Part shown: positions 4,747 through 43,565 of the stretch, in pieces
Layout: every line of letters starts with the position of its first letter
Numbering within the stretch: the stretch's first letter is position 1
NCBI GenBank assembly: GCA_934699595.1
Contig: CAKUWT010000002.1
Span: 37,065 to 101,064 of the forward strand
Length of the DNA: 64,000 nt
Direction of reading: 5' to 3'
Source: an uncultured Patescibacteria group bacterium
GTDB taxonomy: Bacteria; Patescibacteriota; Minisyncoccia; Phycocordibacterales; UBA918
Translations under genes and position numbers: made by a program
The notes under the pieces: model-generated
Told to the model about the DNA's origin: nothing
What the model saw: the letters and a program-made list of their open reading frames with translations, nothing else
The model's database searches: none

Positions 4747-5298
4747 AAATATAATTTTTTGTTACACCGTTTGGATAGATACGTGCTTGGCAAAAGTAAT
4801 TAGGCCGCCCACTCCGTGGAGTAACTCCAGTAACCTGCGAAGGTCGCTGATTACTATAGCACAATCAGGTTAATATTTCAAGCTTCAGCCATAAATCCTA
4901 GTCTGTGAAACTGACGAAAATAAGCTTGTAGAACTTAGGTTTCTCAAGGAAGTGTTTTAGGTAATTGAGTATCCTCCTCACGACGTGATAACCCATCACT
5001 GGAGAGATGCCAAAGTTTCCCTGCTCACGGGTAGTTAAACAGAAAATGTAAAAAGTGGGTCGACAAGAAATTTCCTTCAGCGTGATTCACGTTGAACAAC
5101 AACTGACTGAGAAAAGAGTGACGGAAACGAGGGGACCATTTCTTTTTCAGAAGAGAGGCACGGTCAAGTGGAAGAGGTGGTGTCTAGAAACTATAAAAAA
5201 TGTGGGTCCCCTAGTGTATGGGGCAGGGAGTAGGTTTTGCTGGTCACCGATAAACTGGCCGATCGCTGAGAAATGTTGAGAGAGAAACTAACAGAGTA

Positions 5299-6240
5299 AT
5301 GTTAAAATGGATTGACATGGACTGGCAAACTTCATTGAAAGATTTTCAACAATATTTAGAAATTGAACGTGGTCGTAGTCAGGCGACGACTGAAAATTAT
5401 TTACGCTACTTGCGTAAGTATTTCCAGTTTGCCAAAATCAGTTCCCCGAGTGAGATTACTGAAGTTAGTGTTCGGGAGTGGCGGCTGCACTTAAACCGCT
5501 TACCAGGAACTAAAGTGGGTGGTCGTCAGGAACCGATGAAAAGACGAACTCAAAATTATTACTTGATAGCACTAAGAGCCTATTTAAAATTTTTACGAAT
5601 GCGCAATGTAGAGAGTTTGGCGCCAGAAAAAATCGAACTAGCCAAAGTGGCCTCGAGACAAATTGACATCATTACCGCTGCTGAGTTAGAGAGATTGTTG
5701 TTAGCTCCAGATCCGGCCACCCCGCAAGGCTTGCGTGATCGTGCTGTGCTACAGCTCCTCTTCTCGACGGGGCTTCGGGTATCTGAGTTGTGCTCTCTTA
5801 ACATTGACGATATTGATATGGAACGTGACGAGTTCTCGATTCGAGGTAAGGGAGAAAGGGTGCGGGTGGTGTTTTTGTCGGAGACTGCTAAGCGTATGAT
5901 TCGTGATTGGTTAGCGACGAGGGAAGATATTGAGGAGGCTCTTTTTATACAACTAGGAAAACGTAGCGCGGCCGATGGTAGTCGCCGGCTGCAGCCACGG
6001 GCAGTGCAGCGACTTTTGAAAAAGGCGGCAGTACTGGCTGGTATTACCCGTAAGGTGACACCACACACTATCCGTCACAGTTTCGCTACCGATTTGTTAA
6101 GAAACGGGGCCGACCTGCGAGCAGTTCAAAGCATGCTTGGACATGCTGACATCAGTACTACTCAGGTCTATACGCACGTGACTGATGCCCATTTACGAGA
6201 AGTTCATAAAAAATTTCATCACCGCAAAAATCAGGATTAG
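5299..6240 (+). CDS. Tyrosine site-specific recombinase, XerC/XerD family
   Basis: 313 aa with an N-terminal SAM-like domain and a C-terminal catalytic domain (RHSFAT..LLRNGADLRAVQSMLGHADISTTQVYTHV). Confidence 0.85.
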   Translation: MLKWIDMDWQTSLKDFQQYLEIERGRSQATTENYLRYLRKYFQFAKISSPSEITEVSVREWRLHLNRLPGTKVGGRQEPMKRRTQNYYLIALRAYLKFLRMRNVESLAPEKIELAKVASRQIDIITAAELERLLLAPDPATPQGLRDRAVLQLLFSTGLRVSELCSLNIDDIDMERDEFSIRGKGERVRVVFLSETAKRMIRDWLATREDIEEALFIQLGKRSAADGSRRLQPRAVQRLLKKAAVLAGITRKVTPHTIRHSFATDLLRNGADLRAVQSMLGHADISTTQVYTHVTDAHLREVHKKFHHRKNQD

Positions 6241-11997: not shown

Positions 11998-12765
11998 ATA
12001 TAATTAAAGAGTTGAGAATTAGCCTTTGTTTACAAAGCAAAATTAAGTAACGGGTAAAGTGAACAGGTCTTGTCCTTTATAAAAGACAGAGTTTGCTCAC
12101 TTATCCCCACTTATACACATACTGTCCTTTACACTAACCTATAAAAGACATAATATACATGTAGGCCCAAAGAGGGCGCGCAGGAACTTTTCCTCGAGTT
12201 CTCCACAGAATCTTTCTGTTGAGAGTTCGGGGCTAAGCTCCCCGTAAAGAGTCCTTTATAAAAATAATAAGAGTTTTATCTCCAAAAATAACTCTAAAGT
12301 TCATAAGTAAAGAACAAACCCACCTTAATATAAGAAATCTGCTTACTAGTTCTCTAAAGACTAATAAGTGCAGTGATGTACGAGGTAGTGCTTGATAGAA
12401 TACGTAAGTAATCTTGATTTCTTCTCAAAGAGAGCAAAAAAAGGTTAACCACATTGTAATAGTGGATACCAATAGAGGAAAAACCTCCAATAATAAAGCT
12501 CTAAATCAAAAGGCCTGCGGGAGTTGCTAGTTAATGACAGTTTGACTACCAACTTCCCCAGGCCTTTTTCTATGGTTGAACATGGATCGTTTTAAATCTA
12601 ATCTGCAGATAAAATATCGCTGGTAACACCTTAGGGTGCTATCGATATTACGGACAGTTAGTTACGAGTAATTAGCTGAAACTGGATGAGGTCTAATATT
12701 TCTCTTATTTGGAGCAAAAAAGACATGATGAAAGGCCGGGACTATAAAACGGCTGTTTATTAAAG

Positions 12766-14235: not shown

Positions 14236-14316
14236 AATCGACGATATTATAACAAATATTATTGCTTTTTCCCTATTTTAGACGTATGATGGCTGACGAA
14301 AGCGAATACGCTAACT

Positions 14317-14388
14317 GCACCCATGGTGAAATGGATATCACAACTGACTTCGGATCAGTCGTTCTGGGTTCGAGTCCTGGTGGGTGCA
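14317..14388 (+). tRNA. tRNA-Arg(TCG)
   Basis: Folded by hand. The acceptor is GCACCCA/TGGGTGC, the D stem GTGA/TCAC, and the anticodon stem ACTGA/TCAGT with loop CTTCGGA. The T arm is CTGGG-TTCGAGT-CCTGG. No CCA is encoded. Confidence 0.75.
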
Positions 14389-14440
14389 CAATCGTTACTT
14401 AATTTTATTACGTAACAAAACTTCCTAGAGATAATAAAAC

Positions 14441-14635
14441 ATTATTTGGGCAGAAACAGTGTAAAGACACTGTTTCTGAGACTAGTACCACCAGGGCATT
14501 TCTATTTTTATAGTCGGACTATCGTCCTTCTTAAAAATAAGTCAAGCCCGATTGAGATATTTCTAAGGCGACAGCCGAAAGAAATATCCAATTGGGGTAC
14601 TGAACCTGTAAGGTTCGAGTCCTGGTTGGGGTAAA
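14441..14635 (+). repeat. tRNA-associated modular repeat element, copy A, ending in a degenerate copy of the tRNA-Arg 3' half
   Basis: tttgggCAGAAACAGTG-taaaga-CACTGTTTCTG hairpin at 14451-14478. A GATATTT...AAATATC stem-loop at 14556-14588. The end is GGTTCGAGTCCTGGTTGGGG, compared with the tRNA's GGTTCGAGTCCTGGTGGGTGC. Confidence 0.6.
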
Positions 14636-14771
14636 AGCCATTTACCTGGTTCGACTATGGAGGAAGGTCACTTAGTAGATTTGAAATCTCTCAGACGAAC
14701 AAAATATCCACTAGAATGACCGAAGTGGGTGGCTGTGTCCAATTTTTAAAAAATCACTATACTAAAGTATT

Positions 14772-15146
14772 ATGAAACTATACATTATTCCTGGTTTAGG
14801 TGAAAGCCTTGATGATTATCAATGGTTGGTTCTGTCGGGTGAACAACGTGGTTACGAGGTCGAGTTTCTTCCTTGGCAATTACCGGGGAACCTTTTGACC
14901 GAAATTATCAACCGTCCTCTGGTGCCTGGCTCAACAGTTTTTGGCTTCTCCGTCGGGGCTTTGATAGCCTATAAGCTAACAACACCGATGTAAAAAGGTA
15001 TCTATGCATCAATGTCGGAGATCCTTGAGGGCGATATTGAGCCAGTTTTAGATGAGGCGGTAAAGATCTTTGAATTTAAAACAGTTCAAGACTTTCGCTA
15101 CTTAACATATGGTGTACCAAAAGCGACTGAGTGGGTGCAGTTTTAA
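14772..15146 (+). pseudogene. Decayed alpha/beta serine hydrolase paralog of 18726..19334, interrupted by an in-frame TAA
   Basis: The 73-aa ORF has a GFSVGA nucleophile elbow and ends at the TAA at 14991. The same frame continues with ...FEFKTVQDFRYLTY, resembling the C-terminus of the intact hydrolase (KLVTFQDRNHFLL). The total is still too short for the fold. Confidence 0.4.
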
Positions 15147-15400
15147 GGTGAATTAGAACCTAGTTCCCGAGTGCATCAATTAGGGTCAGTACAGATAGTT
15201 CCCCAAACTGGTCACGAGCTAACTCCCGCTTATCAGGAATTGATACTTAGCGAGCTCTAGCTCTAAAGCTGGTATCAGAACCTCTTCTTATTAACAACCT
15301 GCTACTCTTCCCCTCACCCAGAGCTGCCTAATACCCCTCCCCAAAAAATGAACACTGGTGACTATCTTTGTAATAAAGATATTGTTATACTAAGTTACGA

Positions 15401-16090
15401 ATGACCGTAAAAAAACCCTATAAACAAAAGCTATATCAGGAAGCGCTTACTTTGAGGCAGCGTGGCTTTACCTATACTCAGATTGCAGAAATCTGTGGTA
15501 TTTCACGTGGAACCGTCAGTAATTGGCTAAAAGACCACTCTTTTTCCCAGCGAGTAGCTTTAGATAATCAAAAAAGAGCTGTCAGGCAGAATAAGGAGCG
15601 TCTAAAACTAGTTAACAAAACTAGAGCTAATGAACGCCAACGACAGCTGGCTGAAATGGTTCGTCACGCCACTGTGGAGTTTAAGAATTATCAGTCCTCT
15701 CCCCTGTTTATGAGCGCTTTAGCGCTTTATGCCGGTCACGCTGATCATAAAGCAACTAATCAGGTGCGCTTTAGTAGCAATCAAGTCGAGCTTCATTTAA
15801 TCTTTAAACGGTTCCTGCTCAAATACGCTGGCGTTACCAACGAACGTTTACGTCTCGCTCTGCAAATACCAGAAACAGCTAACCAAGAACGGTGCCGAAA
15901 ATATTGGGCGCAGAAACTAGGACTAAAAGCTAATCAGTTCTACAAAATCCAGCTTATCCCTAGGGGTCACACCAGTAGACCGTTGCATTTTGGGACCGGA
16001 AACACTATAATCAATGATACTTTACTTCAAGCTAAGTTGCAGACCTGGGCAAAGCTCACTTTGCAGCAGCTGAGTAAAAAGAGTTCTTGA
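15401..16090 (+). CDS. Hypothetical protein with an N-terminal helix-turn-helix domain
   Basis: 229 aa. LRQRGFTYTQIAEICGISRGTVSNWLK resembles resolvase/terminase-small-subunit-type HTH. The C-terminal half is unassigned, with only a weak LAGLIDADG-like stretch (LYAGHADH). Confidence 0.45.
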   Translation: MTVKKPYKQKLYQEALTLRQRGFTYTQIAEICGISRGTVSNWLKDHSFSQRVALDNQKRAVRQNKERLKLVNKTRANERQRQLAEMVRHATVEFKNYQSSPLFMSALALYAGHADHKATNQVRFSSNQVELHLIFKRFLLKYAGVTNERLRLALQIPETANQERCRKYWAQKLGLKANQFYKIQLIPRGHTSRPLHFGTGNTIINDTLLQAKLQTWAKLTLQQLSKKSS

Positions 16091-16106
16091 TTAAGTTCAA
16101 TACATT

Positions 16107-16180
16107 GCGGCCATGGTTAAGTGGTATAACATGTCGTTGCCAACGATAAGTCGAGAGTTCGATTCTCTCTGGCCGCACCA
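16107..16180 (+). tRNA. tRNA-Gly(GCC) with genomically encoded CCA
   Basis: Hand fold. The acceptor is GCGGCCA/TGGCCGC, the D stem GTTA/TAAC, the anticodon loop TTGCCAA, and the T arm GAGAG-TTCGATT-CTCTC. The discriminator A is followed by CCA. Confidence 0.85.
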
Positions 16181-16231
16181 AAAGTGACCTAATCTTATTA
16201 CGTTAGGTATTCTCTATATTAAACAAACTTT

Positions 16232-16368
16232 ATTTGGGCAGAAACAGTCCGGGGGACTGTTTCTGAGAATCGAAGGGTTAGTCAGATATTTTAAGGTCTG
16301 ATAGGTGAACTAAAATATCGATAACCAGCACTGAACCCGTAGAGTCCGATTCCCTCTAGTCGCACCAA
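16232..16368 (+). repeat. tRNA-associated modular repeat element, copy B, ending in a degenerate copy of the tRNA-Gly(GCC) 3' half
   Basis: tttgggCAGAAACAGTC-cggggg-GACTGTTTCTG hairpin at 16239-16265. The 9-bp stem GATATTTTA...TAAAATATC covaries with copy A. The end is GAGTCCGATTCCCTCTAGTCGCACCA, compared with the tRNA's GAGTTCGATTCTCTCTGGCCGCACCA. Confidence 0.6.
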
Positions 16369-16768
16369 AGGGTAGTGTAATCCTGTTATAGTACACACTG
16401 TCTATTTATTGAAACTGGATGAATCTGTTGATCAAGGTCAGCCCCCACGTCGCTTACAGAGTATTAGTCATTAAATAGACAGGGTCCTCATAAACTCAGT
16501 ATTTGGACCCAGATCAGACCTATAGGCCTATAAGGGAAAAAGATAATAGACAAAAGTCGCCTCTGGGGACAAACCTGTGTATTTGTGGATAAGAGACAAT
16601 CGTCTTTTATGGATTATCTTATTTAGAGCCATATATTAAAAGACATAGTCAAAATATGGTCTTATTTAATGTTTCACGTGAAACAAGTTACACGAGAAAC
16701 AGTCTTTAGCTAGAACGATAACCAAGTATCATTTTAATTAGACCAGGCTGTGTGTTAAACTAGCCTCA

Positions 16769-17170
16769 GTGTCAAGGCTAAAAAATAAGCAAATTGGCAA
16801 TCTAGGAGAATCTGTTGTTGCAAATCACTTAGTGAGACATGGGTTCACTATTTTAGAACGAAATTACCTTAAAAAGTGGGGTGAAATTGACATTATTGCA
16901 GTCAAAAGCGATAAAGTGCATTTTATCGAAGTAAAAACTGTTTCATATGAAACAAAATCTCTATTAAAGTATGCTGTTACACATGAAACTTGGCGACCTG
17001 AAGAAATGGTGCATAAGCATAAACAAGAACGGTTTAAGCGAGTAATCGACACTTGGTTAAGCGCCACTAGTTATCAAGGAGATTGGCAAATTGATGTTAT
17101 CACCTTAAGAATTGTGCCACGTGAAACATACGCTGTTATAAAAGTCTTTGATAATTTAATCTTTGAGTGA
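16769..17170 (+). CDS. YraN/UPF0102-family putative endonuclease
   Basis: 133 aa with G..GE..A..HL...G..ILERNY....GEIDIIA....V.FIEVKT, the UPF0102 signature. Confidence 0.7.
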   Translation: MSRLKNKQIGNLGESVVANHLVRHGFTILERNYLKKWGEIDIIAVKSDKVHFIEVKTVSYETKSLLKYAVTHETWRPEEMVHKHKQERFKRVIDTWLSATSYQGDWQIDVITLRIVPRETYAVIKVFDNLIFE

Positions 17171-18117
17171 ACGCAGACATGTTACACGTGTAACTAAAAT
17201 GTCCGAATATTGAGATTTAGGACCAAAATTACGTTTTTATAAAAAACAAACATAAAATAAATGAGGACAGTCCTGCTGATAGTAGATAATTTTGTAATCT
17301 AGTTAAGAGCCAGTCATCTTTTGGGAGTAGAGGCGAGGGTTACACGTGTAACTGAATTCGCAGAAACGTAGGCTAGATTGAGCCGTCTTTGATCAGCACG
17401 CTAGAATAATGGACGTATTTATACCTGCTGGCACTACCTTCTTTAGGTAATTCTCAAAAAAAGAGAAGAAAAGGTTACCGACTGATTGGTCCAGGGCTGC
17501 CGGACTTACTGACTTGGTTAAAAAACTTCGAAATTCTTCTTGATAAACACTGCCTTGGTGCATTGGTTGAGATTACCGCTTAATTATAAGGTGATTTATG
17601 TAGAATTTACCGTTTTAGAAGTAAAAATGTTTCCCATGAAACGGCTTTTAAAAAAATAATACTTATAAATCGATCTTTGGGCAAAGACCTTAAGTCTTTG
17701 TTGGTACAACTTACTCGTTGGAATCAACTTTGGGTCATATTTTTCTAAAAAAGAGGATATAATACTTATTATACGCTGGAGTGCATCAGAAGTTTGGACT
17801 TAAATGCTATTCAGGTGTTACACGTGTAACTGGTTAGATTACAAAAATTCCAGAAACTAGTAGAATCGATATGAAATTTGGCAGAAACCGGTAAAAAACT
17901 GGCAATAACTTCTAATTATCTGTCATGGGGTTAGTTTCACGTGAAATATTTGTCTTGTGAGCTTCAGTTTAAATCTATGAGGGTTTTTGACTGGCGCAAA
18001 AGGTTAAGCAAATGGTGGAGGATTAACTGTTGTTGTATACATAGCGATATGTAATCGAACTGTGCGGTTTCAGCATGGATTGTCGATTTTTTACTTGCTA
18101 TTAAGTGGGTACTAGCC
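17171..18117. repeat. Roughly 950-bp noncoding stretch with no ORF of 60 aa or more, containing repeated 14-bp CACGTG-core palindromes and hairpin repeats
   Basis: GTTACACGTGTAAC occurs at 17181-17194, 17339-17352 and 17817-17830. GTTTCACGTGAAA(t) occurs at 17934-17946, and GTTTCACGTGAAAC lies upstream at 16671-16684. A tttgggCAAAGAC-cttaag-GTCTTTG hairpin sits near 17672-17700. Confidence 0.55.
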
Positions 18118-18390
18118 TGACTATAAAAATAGAAATGTCCTGGCGGTACTGTTCACAGAAACAGTCTCCCAGACTGTTTCTGCCCAGACAGAGTTGCTTC
18201 GCCTCTTAGCGTTAAATTGCTCACTAATATTCAGTAACCTAGATGTCGGGGAGCCGGGAATCGAACTCTACGAGTTCAGTATCCCAATTGGATATTTCCT
18301 TCGGCTGGCGCCTTAGAAATATCTCAATCGGGCTTCGATTCCTCAAGAATAGTCCCCCAGACTATTCTTGCCCAAACAACGTTAGGTTTT
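18118..18390 (-). repeat. tRNA-associated modular repeat element, copy C (minus orientation, split architecture), containing a copy of the tRNA-Pro 3' half
   Basis: On the minus strand, a tttgggCAAGAATAGTC-tgggg-GACTATTCTTG hairpin at 18345-18371 is followed by aatcgaagcccgattgagatatttctaagg and a tRNA-like end GTTCGATTCCCGGCTCCCCGACA at about 18245-18268. That end is identical to the tRNA-Pro 3' end. A second hairpin unit, CAGAAACAGTC-tgggag-GACTGTTTCTG with its agtaccgccaggacatttctatttttatag tail, lies at 18118-18185. Confidence 0.6.
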
Positions 18391-18436
18391 GTATCTGTAG
18401 TTATATGTTACTCACTAATATCCAGTAAGTCACTTG

Positions 18437-18507
18437 TCGGGGAGCCGGGAATCGAACCCGGGCCGCACGGTCCCAAACCGCGTACACTACCATTATGCTA
18501 CACCCCG
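18437..18507 (-). tRNA. tRNA-Pro(TGG)
   Basis: Hand fold of the minus strand. The acceptor is CGGGGTG/CTCCCCG with one T-T mismatch at 6:67. The anticodon loop is TTTGGGA and the T arm CCGGG-TTCGATT-CCCGG. No CCA is encoded. Confidence 0.7.
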
Positions 18508-18725
18508 AAATTGGCGTCGCTGTGCCAAAAATATATCACCTTTACGGTGAAAAAGCCAATCGGGACTGGAGAATAAGTAGAGTCAAAATTTAAGTTCAGT
18601 GCAGTTGCATAAGGTCTCTAGCAGATAAGTCAATAAATAGTGGTTCCAGCAGTCAATATTTAGTGAGTTGAATTAAGAAGTTTGTTATTAATCCCCAAAA
18701 TAGCTAAACTAACCAGACATAACAA

Positions 18726-19334
18726 ATGAAACAGGTATTTTTTATTCATGGCGGTAGCGCTTATTCCCGTTATGATGATTTCTTAGAAGCCTTAAAAACT
18801 AAGGAGTTGCGCTCAGTTACTGGAGAGTCCAGTGAGCGCTGGTCGGACAATTTGCGGCGAGATCTGGGTGGGCAGACGGAACTTTTTCAGCCCCGAATGC
18901 CTAATGCTGATAATGCGCAATATCAAGAGTGGCAAATTTGGTTTGAACGACATTTTTCTTATTTACTAGACGGAGTGATCTTGGTCGGCTGGTCTTTGGG
19001 AGGGATGTTCCTTGCTAAGTATTTGTTAGAGAATGATTTGCCGTTCCGTCCGAGCGCGTTGCTGCTCTTGGCGGCTCCTGCCGGAAGTTGTGCAAGCGAA
19101 GTTGGGGAAGATTGTGGCACTTTTCAATTTGATCCAGGCAGAATCGAGGAGTTGGCAACTAAAATGTCCAATATTCAGATTTGGCACTCGGAAGACGATT
19201 TTGTGGTACCTTACGCAGATGCTTTAGTCTATCAGGCGGCACTACCGCAGGCTAAACTGGTGACTTTCCAGGACCGAAACCACTTCTTGCTACCGCAGTT
19301 TCCAGAATTTATTGAAGCTATCCATAGTCTTTAA
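18726..19334 (+). CDS. Alpha/beta-fold serine hydrolase (YdeN/RBBP9-like)
   Basis: 202 aa with a GWSLGG nucleophile elbow and later Asp/His candidates (SEDDFVV, RNHF). Confidence 0.65.
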   Translation: MKQVFFIHGGSAYSRYDDFLEALKTKELRSVTGESSERWSDNLRRDLGGQTELFQPRMPNADNAQYQEWQIWFERHFSYLLDGVILVGWSLGGMFLAKYLLENDLPFRPSALLLLAAPAGSCASEVGEDCGTFQFDPGRIEELATKMSNIQIWHSEDDFVVPYADALVYQAALPQAKLVTFQDRNHFLLPQFPEFIEAIHSL

Positions 19335-19412: not shown

Positions 19413-20018
19413 ATGAGAGAACAGCTGTCAGAACCCGGAAACCAGGAGAAAGACTTTCTAGAGGCCTTTCATCAGTACAACGATGCTCTTTTTAGGCACG
19501 CTTGGATGCGTATCAGTGATCGAGAGAAGGCGATTGACTTAGTGCATGACACCTTCACTAAGGTTTGGGGGTATATTCGTAACGGTAAGGAAGTAGAGCA
19601 GTACCGCCCTTTTCTTTATAAGGTCTTGAATAACCTTATTATTGATGAGTACCGGCGTAAGCGCGAAACCTCCTTAGATGCCCTCTTTGAGAAAGAGGGG
19701 GTAGATGAGGGAACTTTTCCTGAGTTATCAGAAAGTACTGCTGAAACCCTCGCGGCCACTATGGATGGGCAACAGGCCTTTGATTTGGTGGGAGAACTAC
19801 CAGATACTTACAAAGAAATTCTCATTTTACGGTTTGTTGATGGTTTGGGGCCAAAAGAGATCGGTGAGCTGGTGGAGGTGAGTGAAAACGTGGTCTCGGT
19901 GCGTTTGCATCGTGGTCTGAAGATGCTCCGAGAGAAGATTGAGTCTGAGAGTTTGGCGGCTGATGAGCGACGAGAGATCAAGAAAACCCGAGAAAAAAAT
20001 AAACATGCGAAGATTTAG
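19413..20018 (+). CDS. RNA polymerase sigma-70 factor, ECF subfamily
   Basis: 201 aa with a region-2 motif (FRHAWMRISDREKAIDLVHDTFTKVW) and region 4 (LILRFVDGLGPKEIGELVEVSENVVSVRLHRGLKMLR). Confidence 0.85.
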   Translation: MREQLSEPGNQEKDFLEAFHQYNDALFRHAWMRISDREKAIDLVHDTFTKVWGYIRNGKEVEQYRPFLYKVLNNLIIDEYRRKRETSLDALFEKEGVDEGTFPELSESTAETLAATMDGQQAFDLVGELPDTYKEILILRFVDGLGPKEIGELVEVSENVVSVRLHRGLKMLREKIESESLAADERREIKKTREKNKHAKI

Positions 20019-21342
20019 CGAACAATTTTATAAAAAAGCTCAGAGTGTTAAGTTGAGCATAGCGGAAAAGTCTGAACTAGAGAGACAGCTGCTTACTTAT
20101 ATTGAGTATCACCCGCTGGCGGCTACTAGTGTAGTAGCGGGACAGGCTGGGCAGCGAGTGGCTAGTCCGTGGTATCGCTACCTACTTGATTACCGAGCCG
20201 TTGGCGCTATGGCGGTGATGTTTTTAATGATTGGTATTCCTTTGTGGGCAGAAAGAACTTTGCCTGGTGATGTTTTGTACCCCGTTAAAGTTAAGGTTAA
20301 TGAGGAAGTCTGGAGTTCTCTAGCTAGAACACCTTACGAAAAGGTTGAGTGGGAGGGTGAGCGACTGGAACGACGGTTGTCTGAGGCCCGCAAGTTAGCT
20401 GATAGCGGACGTTTGACTCCTGAGTTGGAGGCAGAAGTGTCGGCTAATGTTTTAGCGCATGCTAAAAGTGCTGATCAAAGTTTGGCAAAGTTGCGGACTG
20501 AGGACGAGGCGAACGCTGATGCGGCTACGATGGCTTGGAATTCCAGTTTAGAAGCACAGGTGGCGATGTTAAGTTTGAGTAATGAGATTGAGGGAGAGTC
20601 TGACACCGGTATAGAGGCAAAGCCTCTGGTGGCCCTGGCGAGAACTTTGGGTGAGAGTCTTCCTGCAACCGATGTCACTTTAAAAGCAACTTATAACGAC
20701 CTGGTTGCGCAGCTAGACAAAGACTTTAAGAAGAATGAAACAGCCTTAGCAAAATTAAGGAAAGATCCGACCGTGGAAGCTGACTTTACCGCAATTGAGA
20801 AAAGTCTGAATGATCTACAGCAAATCGCTTCGACTATTTATGAGCAGTATTCAGAAATTGAGTCTGGACAGCAATCTGTAGATGATAAAGAGGCTCTTCT
20901 TAAAGAAAAACGTGACGCTCTACGTAAAATTCTTCGTGACAGCAAGAAGTTAAATATTTTCTTGACAGAGTTGGAAGTACGTAAAAAGATCACTATCGAC
21001 CAGGTTTTTCTGGATAATCTCGATACTAAAGCAGCGGTTAAAACTTTGCAGGCGGAGATTAGTAAGGATCTAGAAATTTTAAGAAAATGGTTAAGTGAGG
21101 AAAGTCGGTTGACAGCGGTAGAGAAGCAGACTCTGACCAATGATTTGGATCGGGCTGATCAGGCGATTTTTGTTGAAGATGTTAGTCTTGAGGAGTTAAA
21201 AAAGATAAGATCTGCCCTAGAGATAGAATTGAAACGAAAAGAAGAATTATCGCTAGGAGCGACTGGGGGAGAGGCGACTAACCAAGGGGCAGCAACCGGA
21301 ACGAAGTCTTTAGAATCTCCAAGTTGGATGTTGCCGAGATAA
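20005..21342 (+). CDS. Putative membrane-anchored anti-sigma factor-like protein with a large coiled-coil extracytoplasmic domain
   Basis: The ATG at 20005 overlaps the sigma stop codon, implying translational coupling. One TM helix (AVGAMAVMFLMIGIPLWA) is followed by a long K/E/L-rich helical region. The track's earlier start at 19939 is out of frame with the sigma gene. Confidence 0.45.
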   Translation: MRRFSEQFYKKAQSVKLSIAEKSELERQLLTYIEYHPLAATSVVAGQAGQRVASPWYRYLLDYRAVGAMAVMFLMIGIPLWAERTLPGDVLYPVKVKVNEEVWSSLARTPYEKVEWEGERLERRLSEARKLADSGRLTPELEAEVSANVLAHAKSADQSLAKLRTEDEANADAATMAWNSSLEAQVAMLSLSNEIEGESDTGIEAKPLVALARTLGESLPATDVTLKATYNDLVAQLDKDFKKNETALAKLRKDPTVEADFTAIEKSLNDLQQIASTIYEQYSEIESGQQSVDDKEALLKEKRDALRKILRDSKKLNIFLTELEVRKKITIDQVFLDNLDTKAAVKTLQAEISKDLEILRKWLSEESRLTAVEKQTLTNDLDRADQAIFVEDVSLEELKKIRSALEIELKRKEELSLGATGGEATNQGAATGTKSLESPSWMLPR

Positions 21343-21389
21343 TTTACAAAACTTGTAGAAAAAGCCTTTCCGAAACGGAAAGGCTTTTT

Positions 21390-22493
21390 CTACAGGTTTT
21401 GCTCTAGGAGACTGGTTAAGAATGGACTCATGATTTCATTAAAAATGTTTGCGCGGGTGGTGATGTTGCCGCTGATGTTAGTTTTGAGATTCGCGCCGGT
21501 TTCTTCGGTGATTGTGCGATCGATATGGCTTAAGGTAATGGCCCGCAAGCTCCCCACGCCCTCGGTTGCGTCGTTGCCACGAGTAGTAATAACACCGATG
21601 ACAGAATTATGACTGTTGGCTACCGGGCCGCCAGAAGCGCCGTGGTTGCCGAGTTCGCTTCCAGAAAGAGCGATAACATCAGCATAGCCGGAGCTAAAAG
21701 TGTATAGATTGGTAATGTTAGCGCTAGCAATACTAGGAATGAATAACCCCGTGCGCCCGTCGGTGAAAAGGCTGGTGGCCGGATAACCGGCTGCCCGGAC
21801 AGTGCTACCTTTGATAGAAGTTGGAAGCAGGTCAGTAGTAATAGCTAGAGCTGGGAAAGTATCGGGCAGAGGAGTTACTTCGTCAATATTGGCGGAAATA
21901 TAAAGAAGAGCGTAATCGCGCTCGCCAGTGCCGAGAGGAAGGGTGTCGTTGATCGCTGCAGCATGCTCTTGAATCCAGGCGGGTGAGATATACAGCAAAT
22001 CAGCTATATAATGTGCCACTGCCGGTGATCCGGTGCGCACCACGCAGGACGCCGAGTCTAGATAATCAGTATTTTTCAGCAGTAGAAACTGTGCTACATG
22101 AGCGTTGGTGAGAATAACTCCTTGGTTGCTGATGAAAAAGCCTGTTCCGGTAGTGGTGCGGAGGCTGTCTTTGGTAGTAATGGTGCAAAAAATATTTACT
22201 AAAGCCTCTAAGGGGTTGTTGGTGTAGGTGGGTTGGGTGCCAGTACTGCCGACAAGGTTAGCTTGTTGATAGCGAAGACTGTTTAGGAGGATATCAGGAA
22301 TGGGCAGGGTTTTGTTGGAGAGCGACTGGTTAATGAGAAGGCTGTCGCGATGAGGTGGAAATAAAGCGGTAAGACTGTTGGTGTCATTGAAATACTGCCA
22401 CCCCCAAAGGCTGCCCAAGAGTGCGGTCAGTACCAGTAAAACCTTTAAACTAGTTGACATAGTTGTGCTAATTGTAGCATGGGTGGAGGCCAT
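21390..22493 (-). CDS. Secreted or membrane-anchored trypsin-like (S1/chymotrypsin-fold) serine protease
   Basis: 367 aa with an N-terminal hydrophobic signal/anchor. His is in TNAHV and Ser in GNHGASGGPV, a GDSGGP-like motif. Confidence 0.6.
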   Translation of the reverse strand: MASTHATISTTMSTSLKVLLVLTALLGSLWGWQYFNDTNSLTALFPPHRDSLLINQSLSNKTLPIPDILLNSLRYQQANLVGSTGTQPTYTNNPLEALVNIFCTITTKDSLRTTTGTGFFISNQGVILTNAHVAQFLLLKNTDYLDSASCVVRTGSPAVAHYIADLLYISPAWIQEHAAAINDTLPLGTGERDYALLYISANIDEVTPLPDTFPALAITTDLLPTSIKGSTVRAAGYPATSLFTDGRTGLFIPSIASANITNLYTFSSGYADVIALSGSELGNHGASGGPVANSHNSVIGVITTRGNDATEGVGSLRAITLSHIDRTITEETGANLKTNISGNITTRANIFNEIMSPFLTSLLEQNL

Positions 22494-22569: not shown

Positions 22570-22640
22570 GCGGGTGTAGTTTAGTGGTAAAACGACTGCC
22601 TTCCAAGCAGTAGTCGGGAGTTCGATTCTTCTCACCCGCA
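22570..22640 (+). tRNA. tRNA-Gly(TCC)
   Basis: Hand fold. The acceptor is GCGGGTG/CACCCGC, the D stem GTTT/AAAC, and the anticodon stem ACTGC/GCAGT with loop CTTCCAA. The T arm is GGGAG-TTCGATT-CTTCT. Confidence 0.8.
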
Positions 22641-22770
22641 CGAGTACAAAAATGAGCGTCCCGTCAGGGCGCCATTTTTGTTCGTGCGGGTGAAGGGAGT
22701 CAACTGCTTGGCTTCCGGGAAGAATCGAAAGGCGGAGCCATGTCGCCTTGCGACAAGTGAGCCGGGGTCG

Positions 22771-22952
22771 AGAACACTTAGTAGATTTGGAGGCGTCAGC
22801 CGAACAAATATACTTAGTGATTCGTGACCGATTCGTATCGCCCTCACTCGCACTAGATGATTTACTAGATATTAAGTAAGTCATAAAACTTTAAATAATT
22901 AACCAAGCACTGTCTGGGGTACTGAGCCCATAAGCTTCGATTCTTCTCAAAC
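22771..22952 (+). repeat. tRNA-associated repeat element, copy D, ending in a degenerate copy of the tRNA-Gly(TCC) 3' half
   Basis: cacttagtagatttgg...cagccgaacaaatatac is also present at 14679-14725. Then ctGGGGTACTGAgcccataaGCTTCGATTCTTCTCAaac ends it, compared with the tRNA's GAGTTCGATTCTTCTCACCCGC. A 5'-like fragment tgcgggtgaaggg lies at about 22684. Confidence 0.5.
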
Positions 22953-43145: not shown

Positions 43146-43565
43146 ATGGAAAAAATTTTCGTCAATACGGATGGTGGCGCTCGAGGTAATCCGGGACCAG
43201 CAGCAGTGGGGGTGTTTGTGACGGATGCTGACGGGAAGATGCTGAAGGAGGTAAAACAGACTATCGGTAATAGCTCTAATAACTTTGCCGAGTATCAGGC
43301 GGTGCTGATCGGGCTTGAGACTCTTAAGCAAATGTATGGTAAGGCCACTAGGGATAAAGAGATTGTTTTGCGCTTAGATAGTGAGTTGGTAAAGAAGCAG
43401 CTGAACGCTGAGTACCAAATAAAGGAACCAGGCCTGGTACCCAATTTCATTGCCATTCATAACTTACGTGTGACGAATTTTCCACATCTTACTCTCCAAC
43501 ATGTACCGCGGGAGCAGAACAAAGAAGCTGATCGCCTGGTTAACGAAGCCTTGGATGGTCAGTAG
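43146..43565 (+). CDS. rnhA: Ribonuclease HI-like protein
   Basis: 139 aa with NTDGGARGNPGPAAVG...NNFAEYQAVLIGLETL matching the RNase H fold motifs. Confidence 0.75.
   Translation: MEKIFVNTDGGARGNPGPAAVGVFVTDADGKMLKEVKQTIGNSSNNFAEYQAVLIGLETLKQMYGKATRDKEIVLRLDSELVKKQLNAEYQIKEPGLVPNFIAIHNLRVTNFPHLTLQHVPREQNKEADRLVNEALDGQ

Follow-up and report, generated by a model that had tools for sequence, protein, structure and literature searches.

The subject of this analysis is the 4.5 kb between positions 14236 and 18725 of a 64,000-nucleotide (nt) stretch of DNA from an uncultured Patescibacteria bacterium; this whole stretch is the window referred to below, and it belongs to a contig of 141,483 bp. 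The first-pass annotation had suggested that the interval is a decaying integrated element or a recombination hotspot at a tRNA cluster. We instead read it, with a probability of roughly 0.7, as a vertically inherited, functionally dense and protein-poor part of a Paceibacteria chromosome (Patescibacteria, or Candidate Phyla Radiation, CPR), made up of a conserved gene backbone, a predicted centromere, a family of structured units that trail tRNA genes, and one variable slot. What looks like junk between tRNAs in a streamlined CPR genome would then be a centromere and a repeat family, and the "island" call corrected here is one that automated pipelines would also make.

The interval is indeed gene-poor. 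Using greedily chosen open reading frames (ORFs) of at least 100 amino acids, its coding density is 0.243, compared with 0.825 in the rest of the window. The median over all windows of 4490 nt is 0.851, and since the interval ranks lowest of them all, its low coding density is real rather than a chance fluctuation. ORF-free gaps cover 14236-15400, 16091-16768 and 17171-18725, and the GC content is somewhat low (0.36-0.43 vs about 0.46). Only two ORFs have family support; these are the helix-turn-helix (HTH) protein and the YraN-like protein named in the first-pass annotation, and both are real (Pfam HTH_23, E 1e-9; UPF0102, E 1.6e-18). ARAGORN and Rfam also bore out its three tRNAs: tRNA-Arg(TCG) at 14317-14389 (plus strand, 59.8 bits in Rfam), tRNA-Gly(GCC) at 16107-16180 (plus strand, directly 3' of the HTH gene) and tRNA-Pro(TGG) at 18436-18507 (minus strand). 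The yraN gene (16769-17170, plus strand; UPF0102, PD-(D/E)XK-like) was identified by Pfam, NCBIfam and tblastx, and matches its profiles over the full domain (PF02021, E 1.6e-18; NCBIfam YraN, E 1e-20, below the equivalog cut-off). Between tRNA-Gly and tRNA-Pro (16181-18435), protein-level conservation is limited to this gene; we rejected hidden conserved ORFs there, as tblastx recovers yraN alone.

To place the interval among relatives, we started from the neighbouring CCA-adding enzyme, whose best non-self matches (66-68% identity) are in metagenome-assembled genomes of Kaiserbacteria, Nomurabacteria and Paceibacteria. We compared 20 kb around the cca orthologues of four distant relatives (L002-L005; loci of related genomes carry L numbers throughout). 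All four share one order: xth, a long spacer, cca, tRNA-Arg(TCG), a variable segment, the HTH_23 gene, tRNA-Gly(GCC), UPF0102, tRNA-Pro(TGG), a second variable segment, an extracytoplasmic function (ECF) sigma factor, a DUF5667 protein, a trypsin-like protease and tRNA-Gly(TCC). Thus tRNA-Arg adjoins cca, and tRNA-Gly(GCC) follows the HTH gene, in the relatives as in the window. The backbone is present in L002-L005, L012, L027, L062 and L077, with no empty site among them. As the HTH and YraN genes keep this order across relatives, they are core syntenic genes and not cargo. The orientation of tRNA-Pro relative to tRNA-Gly(GCC) does vary: the two lie on opposite strands in the window, L003, L062 and L077, and on the same strand in L002, L005, L012 and L027. 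To the right of the interval, 19413-22493 holds the ECF sigma factor gene, a DUF5667 gene overlapping it by 80 nt and the convergent trypsin-like protease gene, a block that is syntenic in L003 and L005.

Variation in gene content is confined to particular slots. Between tRNA-Arg and the HTH gene, the content is wholly different from relative to relative: L003 has one small cupin gene, L002 and L005 have three or four genes, L004 has more than seven, and the window has a pseudogene. This is the only variable slot among the interval's own slots, although the slot between tRNA-Pro and the ECF sigma factor gene likewise varies across relatives. Given the variable content and the pseudogene in the tRNA-Arg slot, the idea of a hotspot at a tRNA holds locally, after tRNA-Arg and between tRNA-Pro and the sigma factor gene, but not for the block as a whole. 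The comparative genomics suggested alongside that idea, in which a conserved interval would speak against an island, gave a similarly divided answer; the order of the content is conserved and its length is not. In our reading, the one slot after tRNA-Arg varies among genomes and is here occupied by a recently inactivated accessory gene.

That gene is the hydrolase-like pseudogene at 14772-15260 (plus strand; GFSxGA motif), which runs in one frame with in-frame TAA codons at 14991 and 15147. When the stops are masked, it has exactly one homologue among 5.8 billion proteins. This protein, P0121 from Kaiserbacteria, is intact, 161 amino acids long and 49% identical over its full length, with K and C at the stop positions; its gene context is unrelated to the window locus. 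The product has no Pfam or NCBIfam match. A single frame, two TAA codons and one intact homologue together mark a recently inactivated, rare accessory gene. The hydrolase pseudogene of the first-pass annotation therefore exists, while its supposed paralogy to the alpha/beta hydrolase at 18726-19334 found no support (BLASTP E = 22, no detectable similarity).

The gene-poor core of the interval contains an array of parS sites, which the first-pass annotation had not noticed in the ORF-free DNA. Eleven ParB-box palindromes lie within 15499-17948 (starting at 15499, 16670, 16686, 16939, 16975, 17113, 17180, 17338, 17628, 17816 and 17933), three of them inside yraN. The site at 16670-16685 is a perfect match to TGTTTCACGTGAAACA, the parS sequence of the ParB literature (PMC7053999, PMC7022226), and the ten others have one to three mismatches to TGTTNCACGTGAAACA. 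The 14-nt palindrome GTTWCACGTGWAAC, which is the core of the canonical ParB site, occurs 11 times with at most two mismatches, always within 15500-17947, where 0.6 copies would be expected in the whole window. With the 16-mer and at most three mismatches, there are 24 strand-hits in the window (1.95 expected), 22 of which fall in the same 2.45 kb. One of the sites within yraN, TGTGCCACGTGAAACA at 17113-17128, is in the yraN frame, where it encodes VPRET, and it recurs in the yraN-homologous stretch of L005 and L077. An isolated parS-like site with two mismatches is also found at 5083-5098, in the spacer upstream of a XerD-like gene (5299-6240).

Seven relatives have loci that cover the interval from tRNA-Gly(GCC) to tRNA-Pro, and all seven carry a cluster of 5-10 parS sites there, around and inside yraN: ten in L002, seven in L003, five each in L005 and L012, six (one of them perfect) in L027, and eight each in L062 and L077. 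Because the array is conserved in these relatives, we interpret it as the centromere of the chromosome; this role of the gene-poor core is predicted from the match to the canonical parS sequence, the clustering of the sites and their conservation. ParB would nucleate on the 11-site array, segregate the chromosome and load SMC. Two results count against this: among the ORFs scanned in the 64-kb window, no ParB was found, and dnaA was not found in it either. For lack of a ParB in the window, we infer the ParB of this genome from relatives. A tblastn search with Bacillus subtilis Spo0J returned matches with E values of 1e-46 to 1e-49 in related Patescibacteria loci, and the match in L037 has the Pfam domains ParB_N, HTH_ParB and ParB_C. 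The parB genes of L037 (623-1462), L045 (5216-6034), L058 (2348-3181) and L061 (2194-2988) adjoin tRNA-Leu(CAA) and lie away from the parS array. A dense, conserved parS array around yraN would be a landmark for chromosome organisation in uncultured Paceibacteria, and a handle for locating the replication origin (oriC).

The rest of our reading concerns the repeat elements of the first-pass annotation, which are present, but number five rather than three; their link to tRNA 3' ends had been missed. They are structured units of about 100-250 nt, directly 3' of the tRNAs, with one or two copies behind every tRNA. Downstream of each of the four tRNAs in the window lies a copy of that tRNA's 3' end, and the tRNAs of L002 and L004 show the same arrangement. 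We denote the tRNA's own 3' end X0, its displaced sense copy X and its reverse complement X'. In the interval, X reproduces the stretch from the T-loop to the 3' end at 19/24 positions for tRNA-Arg, 20/24 for tRNA-Gly and 23/24 for tRNA-Pro, and most units also carry the reverse complement upstream of it.

Two scaffold types, W and S, occur in the window. Behind tRNA-Arg there is a W-type unit (14390-14636, plus strand) with hairpin B (14451-14478), an X' at about 14485-14497 that is an imperfect reverse complement of the tRNA-Arg 3' end, a long hairpin D (14547-14597), a small hairpin (14602-14616) and X at 14611-14634. Its predicted fold has a free energy of -88.9 kcal/mol (z = -8.8 vs shuffled sequence). 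Distal to it lies a degenerate S-type unit (14637-14740, plus strand) with a P3-like hairpin at 14666-14721 (CACTTAGTAGATTTGAA), one mismatch to the S-type motif and a remnant of the tRNA-Arg acceptor strand at 14722-14733. An intact S-type unit is found at the orthologous tRNA-Arg loci of L003, L004, L012, L033 and L062; here it has been pushed distal by the W unit. The unit behind tRNA-Gly(GCC) is a shortened W type (16181-16369, plus strand; hairpin B at 16239-16265, X at 16344-16367). Two units follow tRNA-Pro on the minus strand. The proximal, young one (18245-18435) has a variant of hairpin B with three compensatory pairs (18345-18369), a hairpin D 89% identical to that of the Arg unit, and X at 18245-18268. 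The distal one (18050-18244) is older and decayed (hairpin B at 18156-18182, X remnant at 18053-18076), and its X' (18140-18149) resembles the Arg unit, not tRNA-Pro. Outside the interval, tRNA-Gly(TCC) (22570-22641, plus strand) also has two trailing units behind it, in a region extending to 22950: an S-type unit (22642-22853, plus strand) with a terminator hairpin, X' at 22684-22695, P3 at 22765-22829 and X at 22830-22853, and a W-like remnant (plus strand) ending in TTCGATTCTTCTCA (22922-22950).

In the relatives, units of the widespread S type follow a regular order. The 3' end of the tRNA (X0) is followed by a terminator-like hairpin (T1), then X', often a small hairpin, the sequence GAAA, a conserved core made of the helices P2 and P3, then X and often a second terminator. 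P2 comprises two base pairs that covary, an internal loop rich in GA and a variable hairpin; P3 is a long, irregular and almost invariant hairpin (GGGGTCGAGAACACTTAGTAGATTTGGA..GAACAAATATACTTAGTGATTCGTGAC). RNAfold predicts a Y-shaped three-way junction closed by pairing of X' with X. The copied segment X spans tRNA positions of about 52-58 to about 74-77, starting at position 56 in 19 of 49 cases and ending at 74-75 in 19; in other scaffold types, X starts at 52-54 or 58-59. Insertions of about 20-60 nt, without ORFs, occur in the apical loop of P3 in L023, L062, L029 and L051. The family looks modular and nested.

To see how widespread these units are, we searched for a 20-mer from the P3 part of the core. 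It is present in 79 stretches of the GTDB species set, all from Patescibacteria, with several genomes carrying multiple copies. Among 84 hits of the 20-mer, 65 have a tRNA or transfer-messenger RNA (tmRNA) gene upstream on the same strand, 46 of these at a distance of 101-165 nt; most of the remaining hits sit at contig ends. The host tRNAs cover at least 17 amino-acid specificities in the sampled loci, and tmRNA is a host twice, with the S-type unit 120 nt downstream in L021 (4726-5263) and 530 nt downstream in L030 (6411-7356). S-type units also follow ribosomal-protein genes (L035, L048, L036, L047), where X' is complementary to the end of the coding sequence. From their C-terminal peptides, we take these hosts to be an L2-like end, L7/L12 and S9. 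In L050, the unit is followed by a duplicate of 37-40 nt of the 3' end of the coding sequence, stop codon included.

The association with the gene's own 3' end was also clear in counts over 120 tRNA and tmRNA genes. An exact sense copy of at least 10 nt was found downstream of 52 genes and upstream of three, and an exact antisense copy of the same minimum length downstream of 67 and upstream of three. Both copies together, each of at least 9 nt, occurred downstream of 46 genes and upstream of none, and the antisense copy preceded the sense copy in 38 of 41 cases. Since the loci were chosen through the motif, these frequencies are inflated, and the estimate that units trail about 40-55% of the tRNA genes sampled, plus tmRNA and ribosomal-protein genes, applies to such ascertainment-biased loci. 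In both orientations, the units are tailored to their host gene.

These units apparently form an undescribed family. Rfam at its gathering threshold found only tRNAs in the window and L002-L005, and with E values up to 10 it found nothing credible in 14236-18725. We found no description of tRNA-trailing elements in CPR bacteria in the literature. Several candidate identities were rejected. ARAGORN found no permuted or two-piece tmRNA and no second tRNA gene. X' is not a copy of the tRNA 5' half; it exactly complements the 3' strand, T stem included. TIGR-Tas arrays have another architecture, consisting of 36-nt tandem units (PMC12045711). By eye, the P2 loop does not match the core motifs of a hammerhead or K-turn. 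A phage origin was set aside, the core 20-mer having no match (0) in IMG/VR. An autonomous copy with an ORF in the P3 loop was also set aside; the insertion in L029 is about 40 nt long and has no ORF. Finally, a classical miniature inverted-repeat transposable element (MITE) does not fit, as the inverted ends X' and X differ at each locus and match the local tRNA, and the duplication is 19-25 nt long.

The pattern of substitutions bears on which strand is transcribed. P3 covaries at its base and apex, with pairs 30/39 and 31/38 changing on both sides in 11/48 and 22/48 sequences, respectively. In 44 of 48 sequences a G.U pair is retained, and where one side alone changes, G-C becomes G-U. The retained G.U pair and the covariation favour the sense strand, and an RNA transcribed in the same sense as the tRNA is the most likely form of the core; a hairpin of single-stranded DNA is possible for P3.

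Several observations speak for turnover of the units. Among them are the tandem units of the window: behind tRNA-Pro, a near-perfect X in the proximal unit and a decayed distal unit; behind tRNA-Arg, a W-type unit between the tRNA and a degenerate S-type unit. A unit follows the orthologous tRNA-Pro(TGG) in the window, L002 and L077, but none does in L003, L005, L012 and L027, although these genomes are so distant that loss cannot be told apart from gain. The same tRNA carries different scaffold types in different genomes. In L080, two units (1008-1400 and 2545-2930), 1.5 kb apart, stand behind tRNA-Met and tRNA-Asp. Their cores of about 215 nt (AACCGCAG...GATTCGTGAC) differ by 1 nt and have further modules nested in them, a W-type small hairpin among these. 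By contrast, each locus has its own T1, X', small hairpin and X. Where X differs from X0, X' agrees with X0 in 26 cases and with X in four, and the changes in X mostly break pairing (about 20 of the 26 listed). X thus has the appearance of a relic undergoing decay. Compensatory evolution of the X':X pairing (P1) is unsupported by these counts (26:4), which come from an alignment that is imperfect across the small-hairpin insertion.

We compared the units with a miniature att-like system, and both an intact tRNA with a displaced copy from the T-loop to the 3' end, and filled and empty orthologous sites (at tRNA-Pro(TGG)), were found. We read the units as putative miniature non-autonomous insertion elements with att-like duplications. 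They would land at the 3' ends of tRNA genes and of other genes with high expression, where the stretch of the target that begins in the T-loop and reaches the 3' end (the last 19-25 nt) would be duplicated, much like a miniature attL and attR. With the target's 3' end duplicated, the host gene would stay intact and the displaced copy X would decay. The core would be a separate module that spreads, or is copied by gene conversion, from the 3' flank of one highly expressed gene to that of another. For X', several origins can be proposed: it may serve as a guide or as a primer-binding site, arise at the terminator through quasi-palindrome template switching, or be selected for its pairing with the upstream transcript. 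Taken further, and only tentatively, the units could be a hitherto undescribed class of structured-RNA element that writes the last 10-40 nt of its host into itself twice (as X' and X), either by RNA-primed, reverse-transcribed or RNA-guided insertion with retargeting, or as a cis-acting sensor of RNA 3' ends. If mobile, they would have a retargeting mechanism unseen among the bacterial repeats known so far; if functional, they would add to the RNA biology of 3' ends, in one of the major bacterial radiations, a layer that is abundant yet dispensable.

Some of the evidence pulls the other way. Mobility is deduced from comparing sequences and not from direct observation, and no autonomous copy or associated enzyme was found for the units. 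X' fits no standard mechanism of integration or target-site duplication. The near-identical cores of L080 could reflect gene conversion instead of transposition. Between L035 and L048, X0 changed from GGGAAGAGATA to GGAAAAAGATA and X' changed alike, while X kept the older state; this co-variation of X' and X0 fits functional pairing as well as templated repair. The loci were also picked via a single core motif, which biases the copy frequencies upward.

An alternative is that the units do not move. They would then be cis-acting RNA modules of the host, for example fail-safe terminators or insulators, signals for 3' processing, or stable RNAs formed from the trailer. The pairing partner of X' would be the 3' end of the upstream transcript, with X as a competing or closing strand. 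The strongly conserved core and the covariation in P3 agree with such a function, as does the strongly non-random fold (z-score -8.8), and X' tracks X0, both in the 26:4 count and in L035 versus L048. Moreover, the units are always placed after a highly expressed gene and before the next co-directional one, and some trail ribosomal-protein genes, the end of whose coding sequence is complementary to X'. However, fixed modules do not readily explain presence and absence at orthologous tRNAs, different scaffold types at the same tRNA, tandem arrays with a decayed distal copy, or cores 1 nt apart at unrelated tRNAs (L080). The decay of X, mainly through pair-breaking changes (about 20/26 listed), also argues against them, and for tRNAs, the pairing of X0 with X' would unfold the T arm and acceptor stem. 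On balance, we find this alternative doubtful.

A different alternative concerns the ORF-free DNA, which might be oriC, instead of or besides a centromere. The only perfect DnaA box of the 64-kb window (TTATCCACA, 16584-16592, minus strand) lies here, and the GC minimum is at 17-18 kb. Gene orientation switches from mostly minus to mostly plus at about 11-18 kb, and parS arrays are normally near oriC (PMC7022226). Yet the interval has just this one DnaA box, the cumulative GC skew has no minimum at the interval, and neither dnaA nor dnaN was found in the window. An origin inside the interval was rejected on the count of DnaA boxes, and we regard the alternative as a whole as improbable. The DnaA box sits 80 nt upstream of the perfect parS site. 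A better candidate lies outside, in the spacer between the convergent xth and cca genes (11998-12765), which is also long in L002-L005 (733-1179 nt) and strongly conserved over the xth-proximal 450 nt or so. It contains twin DnaA-box-like 9-mers, themselves conserved (TTATCCCCA and TTATACACA, 12101-12119), three copies of GTCCTTTA/TAAAGGAC including an 18-bp palindrome (12070-12088), a block CCTGCGCGCCCTCTTTGGGCCTACATGTATATTATGTC and a bidirectional terminator hairpin (12508-12568), and has no Rfam match. This spacer could be oriC or an unknown RNA gene.

It could also be speculated that the units are tiny retroelements. In such a scheme, X' would be the primer-binding site for a tRNA 3' end, X and a new X' would be templated from the priming RNA, and integration would rely on homology with the gene that supplied the primer. 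About 19-21 nt at the tRNA 3' end are complementary to X', and this match extends into the T-loop, as in retroviral primer-binding sites; the hosts are the most abundant RNAs (tRNAs, tmRNA and ribosomal-protein mRNAs); and the scheme would account for copies tailored to each locus. However, no reverse transcriptase was found in the window, where an RVT_3 match at 43146-43565 is an RNase H. Furthermore, the end of X0 is usually 1-4 nt beyond the discriminator and shows no CCA signature, and in protein genes X0 does not coincide with a known RNA 3' end. We consider a retroelement very unlikely.

The last alternative brings us back to the integrated element of the first-pass annotation. No recombinase or integrase was found among the ORFs of the interval; the sole tyrosine recombinase we found is the XerD-like gene at 5299-6240, which lies outside it and is syntenic in L003. 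No tRNA-derived direct repeat was found at the interval's far border; the copies of the tRNA 3' ends sit 160-300 nt from each tRNA, with none kilobases away. That the 4.5 kb is the decaying remnant of one mobile element (a genomic island or prophage) integrated at a tRNA is thus hardly credible, and already largely contradicted by synteny: low coding density, somewhat low GC, a pseudogene, duplicated tRNA 3' ends and an HTH protein with weak matches to transposase or terminase HTH domains would suit it, but it fails for the whole block, whose order is kept in all relatives examined, whose yraN and HTH genes are syntenic core genes, whose AT-rich ORF-free part is a conserved parS array, and which has neither an integrase nor an island-scale repeat, the direct repeats enclosing elements of only about 100-250 nt.

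The HTH protein itself (15401-16090, plus strand) has an N-terminal HTH_23 domain (Pfam E 1e-9), a long helix and a C-terminal domain. It has 15 detectable homologues (41-50% identity), of which the few named ones are from Patescibacteria, and its gene is always directly upstream of tRNA-Gly(GCC) and the parS array. An AlphaFold2 model (confidence score, pLDDT, 84.6) has the N-terminal HTH followed by a helix of 50 residues and an alpha/beta domain at the C-terminus. Foldseek found no significant fold match for the protein; the C-terminal domain has weak similarity to LAGLIDADG/WhiA-like folds and an invariant Asp within the motif LALYxxxGD.

How do the predicted centromere and the units compare with known systems? 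The putative ParB-binding array resembles Spo0J-type parS/ParABS systems (tGTTNCACGTGAAACa) in having the identical 16-bp palindrome, in its clustered degenerate copies with some sites inside coding sequence, and in the canonical ParB encoded in the clade. It differs in its unusually high density (11 sites in 2.45 kb) and in its position, wrapped around yraN between two tRNAs and, in this window, not beside parAB, gidB or dnaA.

For the units, three groups of elements come closest. Like the right-end guide RNAs of IS200/IS605 elements (TnpB omega/reRNA), they have a conserved, structured scaffold that ends sharply (..GTGAC) and is followed by about 20 nt of locus-specific sequence. However, the units have no tnpB or tnpA beside them and no Rfam match, and their flank is a duplicate of the upstream DNA, paired to X'. 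With MITEs and the Correia, REP/BIME, RPE and ERIC repeats, they share small size, lack of coding sequence, multiple copies and strong folding, as well as an intergenic location near terminators and nested, mosaic copies. Unlike these, the units take their terminal inverted repeat (X'/X) from the target instead of bringing their own, duplicate 19-25 nt or more where 2-10 bp would be usual for such repeats, and lie strictly immediately 3' of a structural-RNA gene.

The third group consists of elements that tyrosine integrases insert into tRNA genes, where the identity block between attL and attR reportedly runs from the T-loop or from the 3' end. The layout of the units is alike: an intact tRNA, an element, and a displaced partial copy from positions 52-58 to the 3' end, with a second class starting at the extreme 3' end, and tmRNA and the 3' ends of protein genes used as well. 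The units differ in being only about 100-250 nt long, without an integrase. In addition, a single unit family takes essentially any tRNA, and each unit also has an internal reverse complement of its target.

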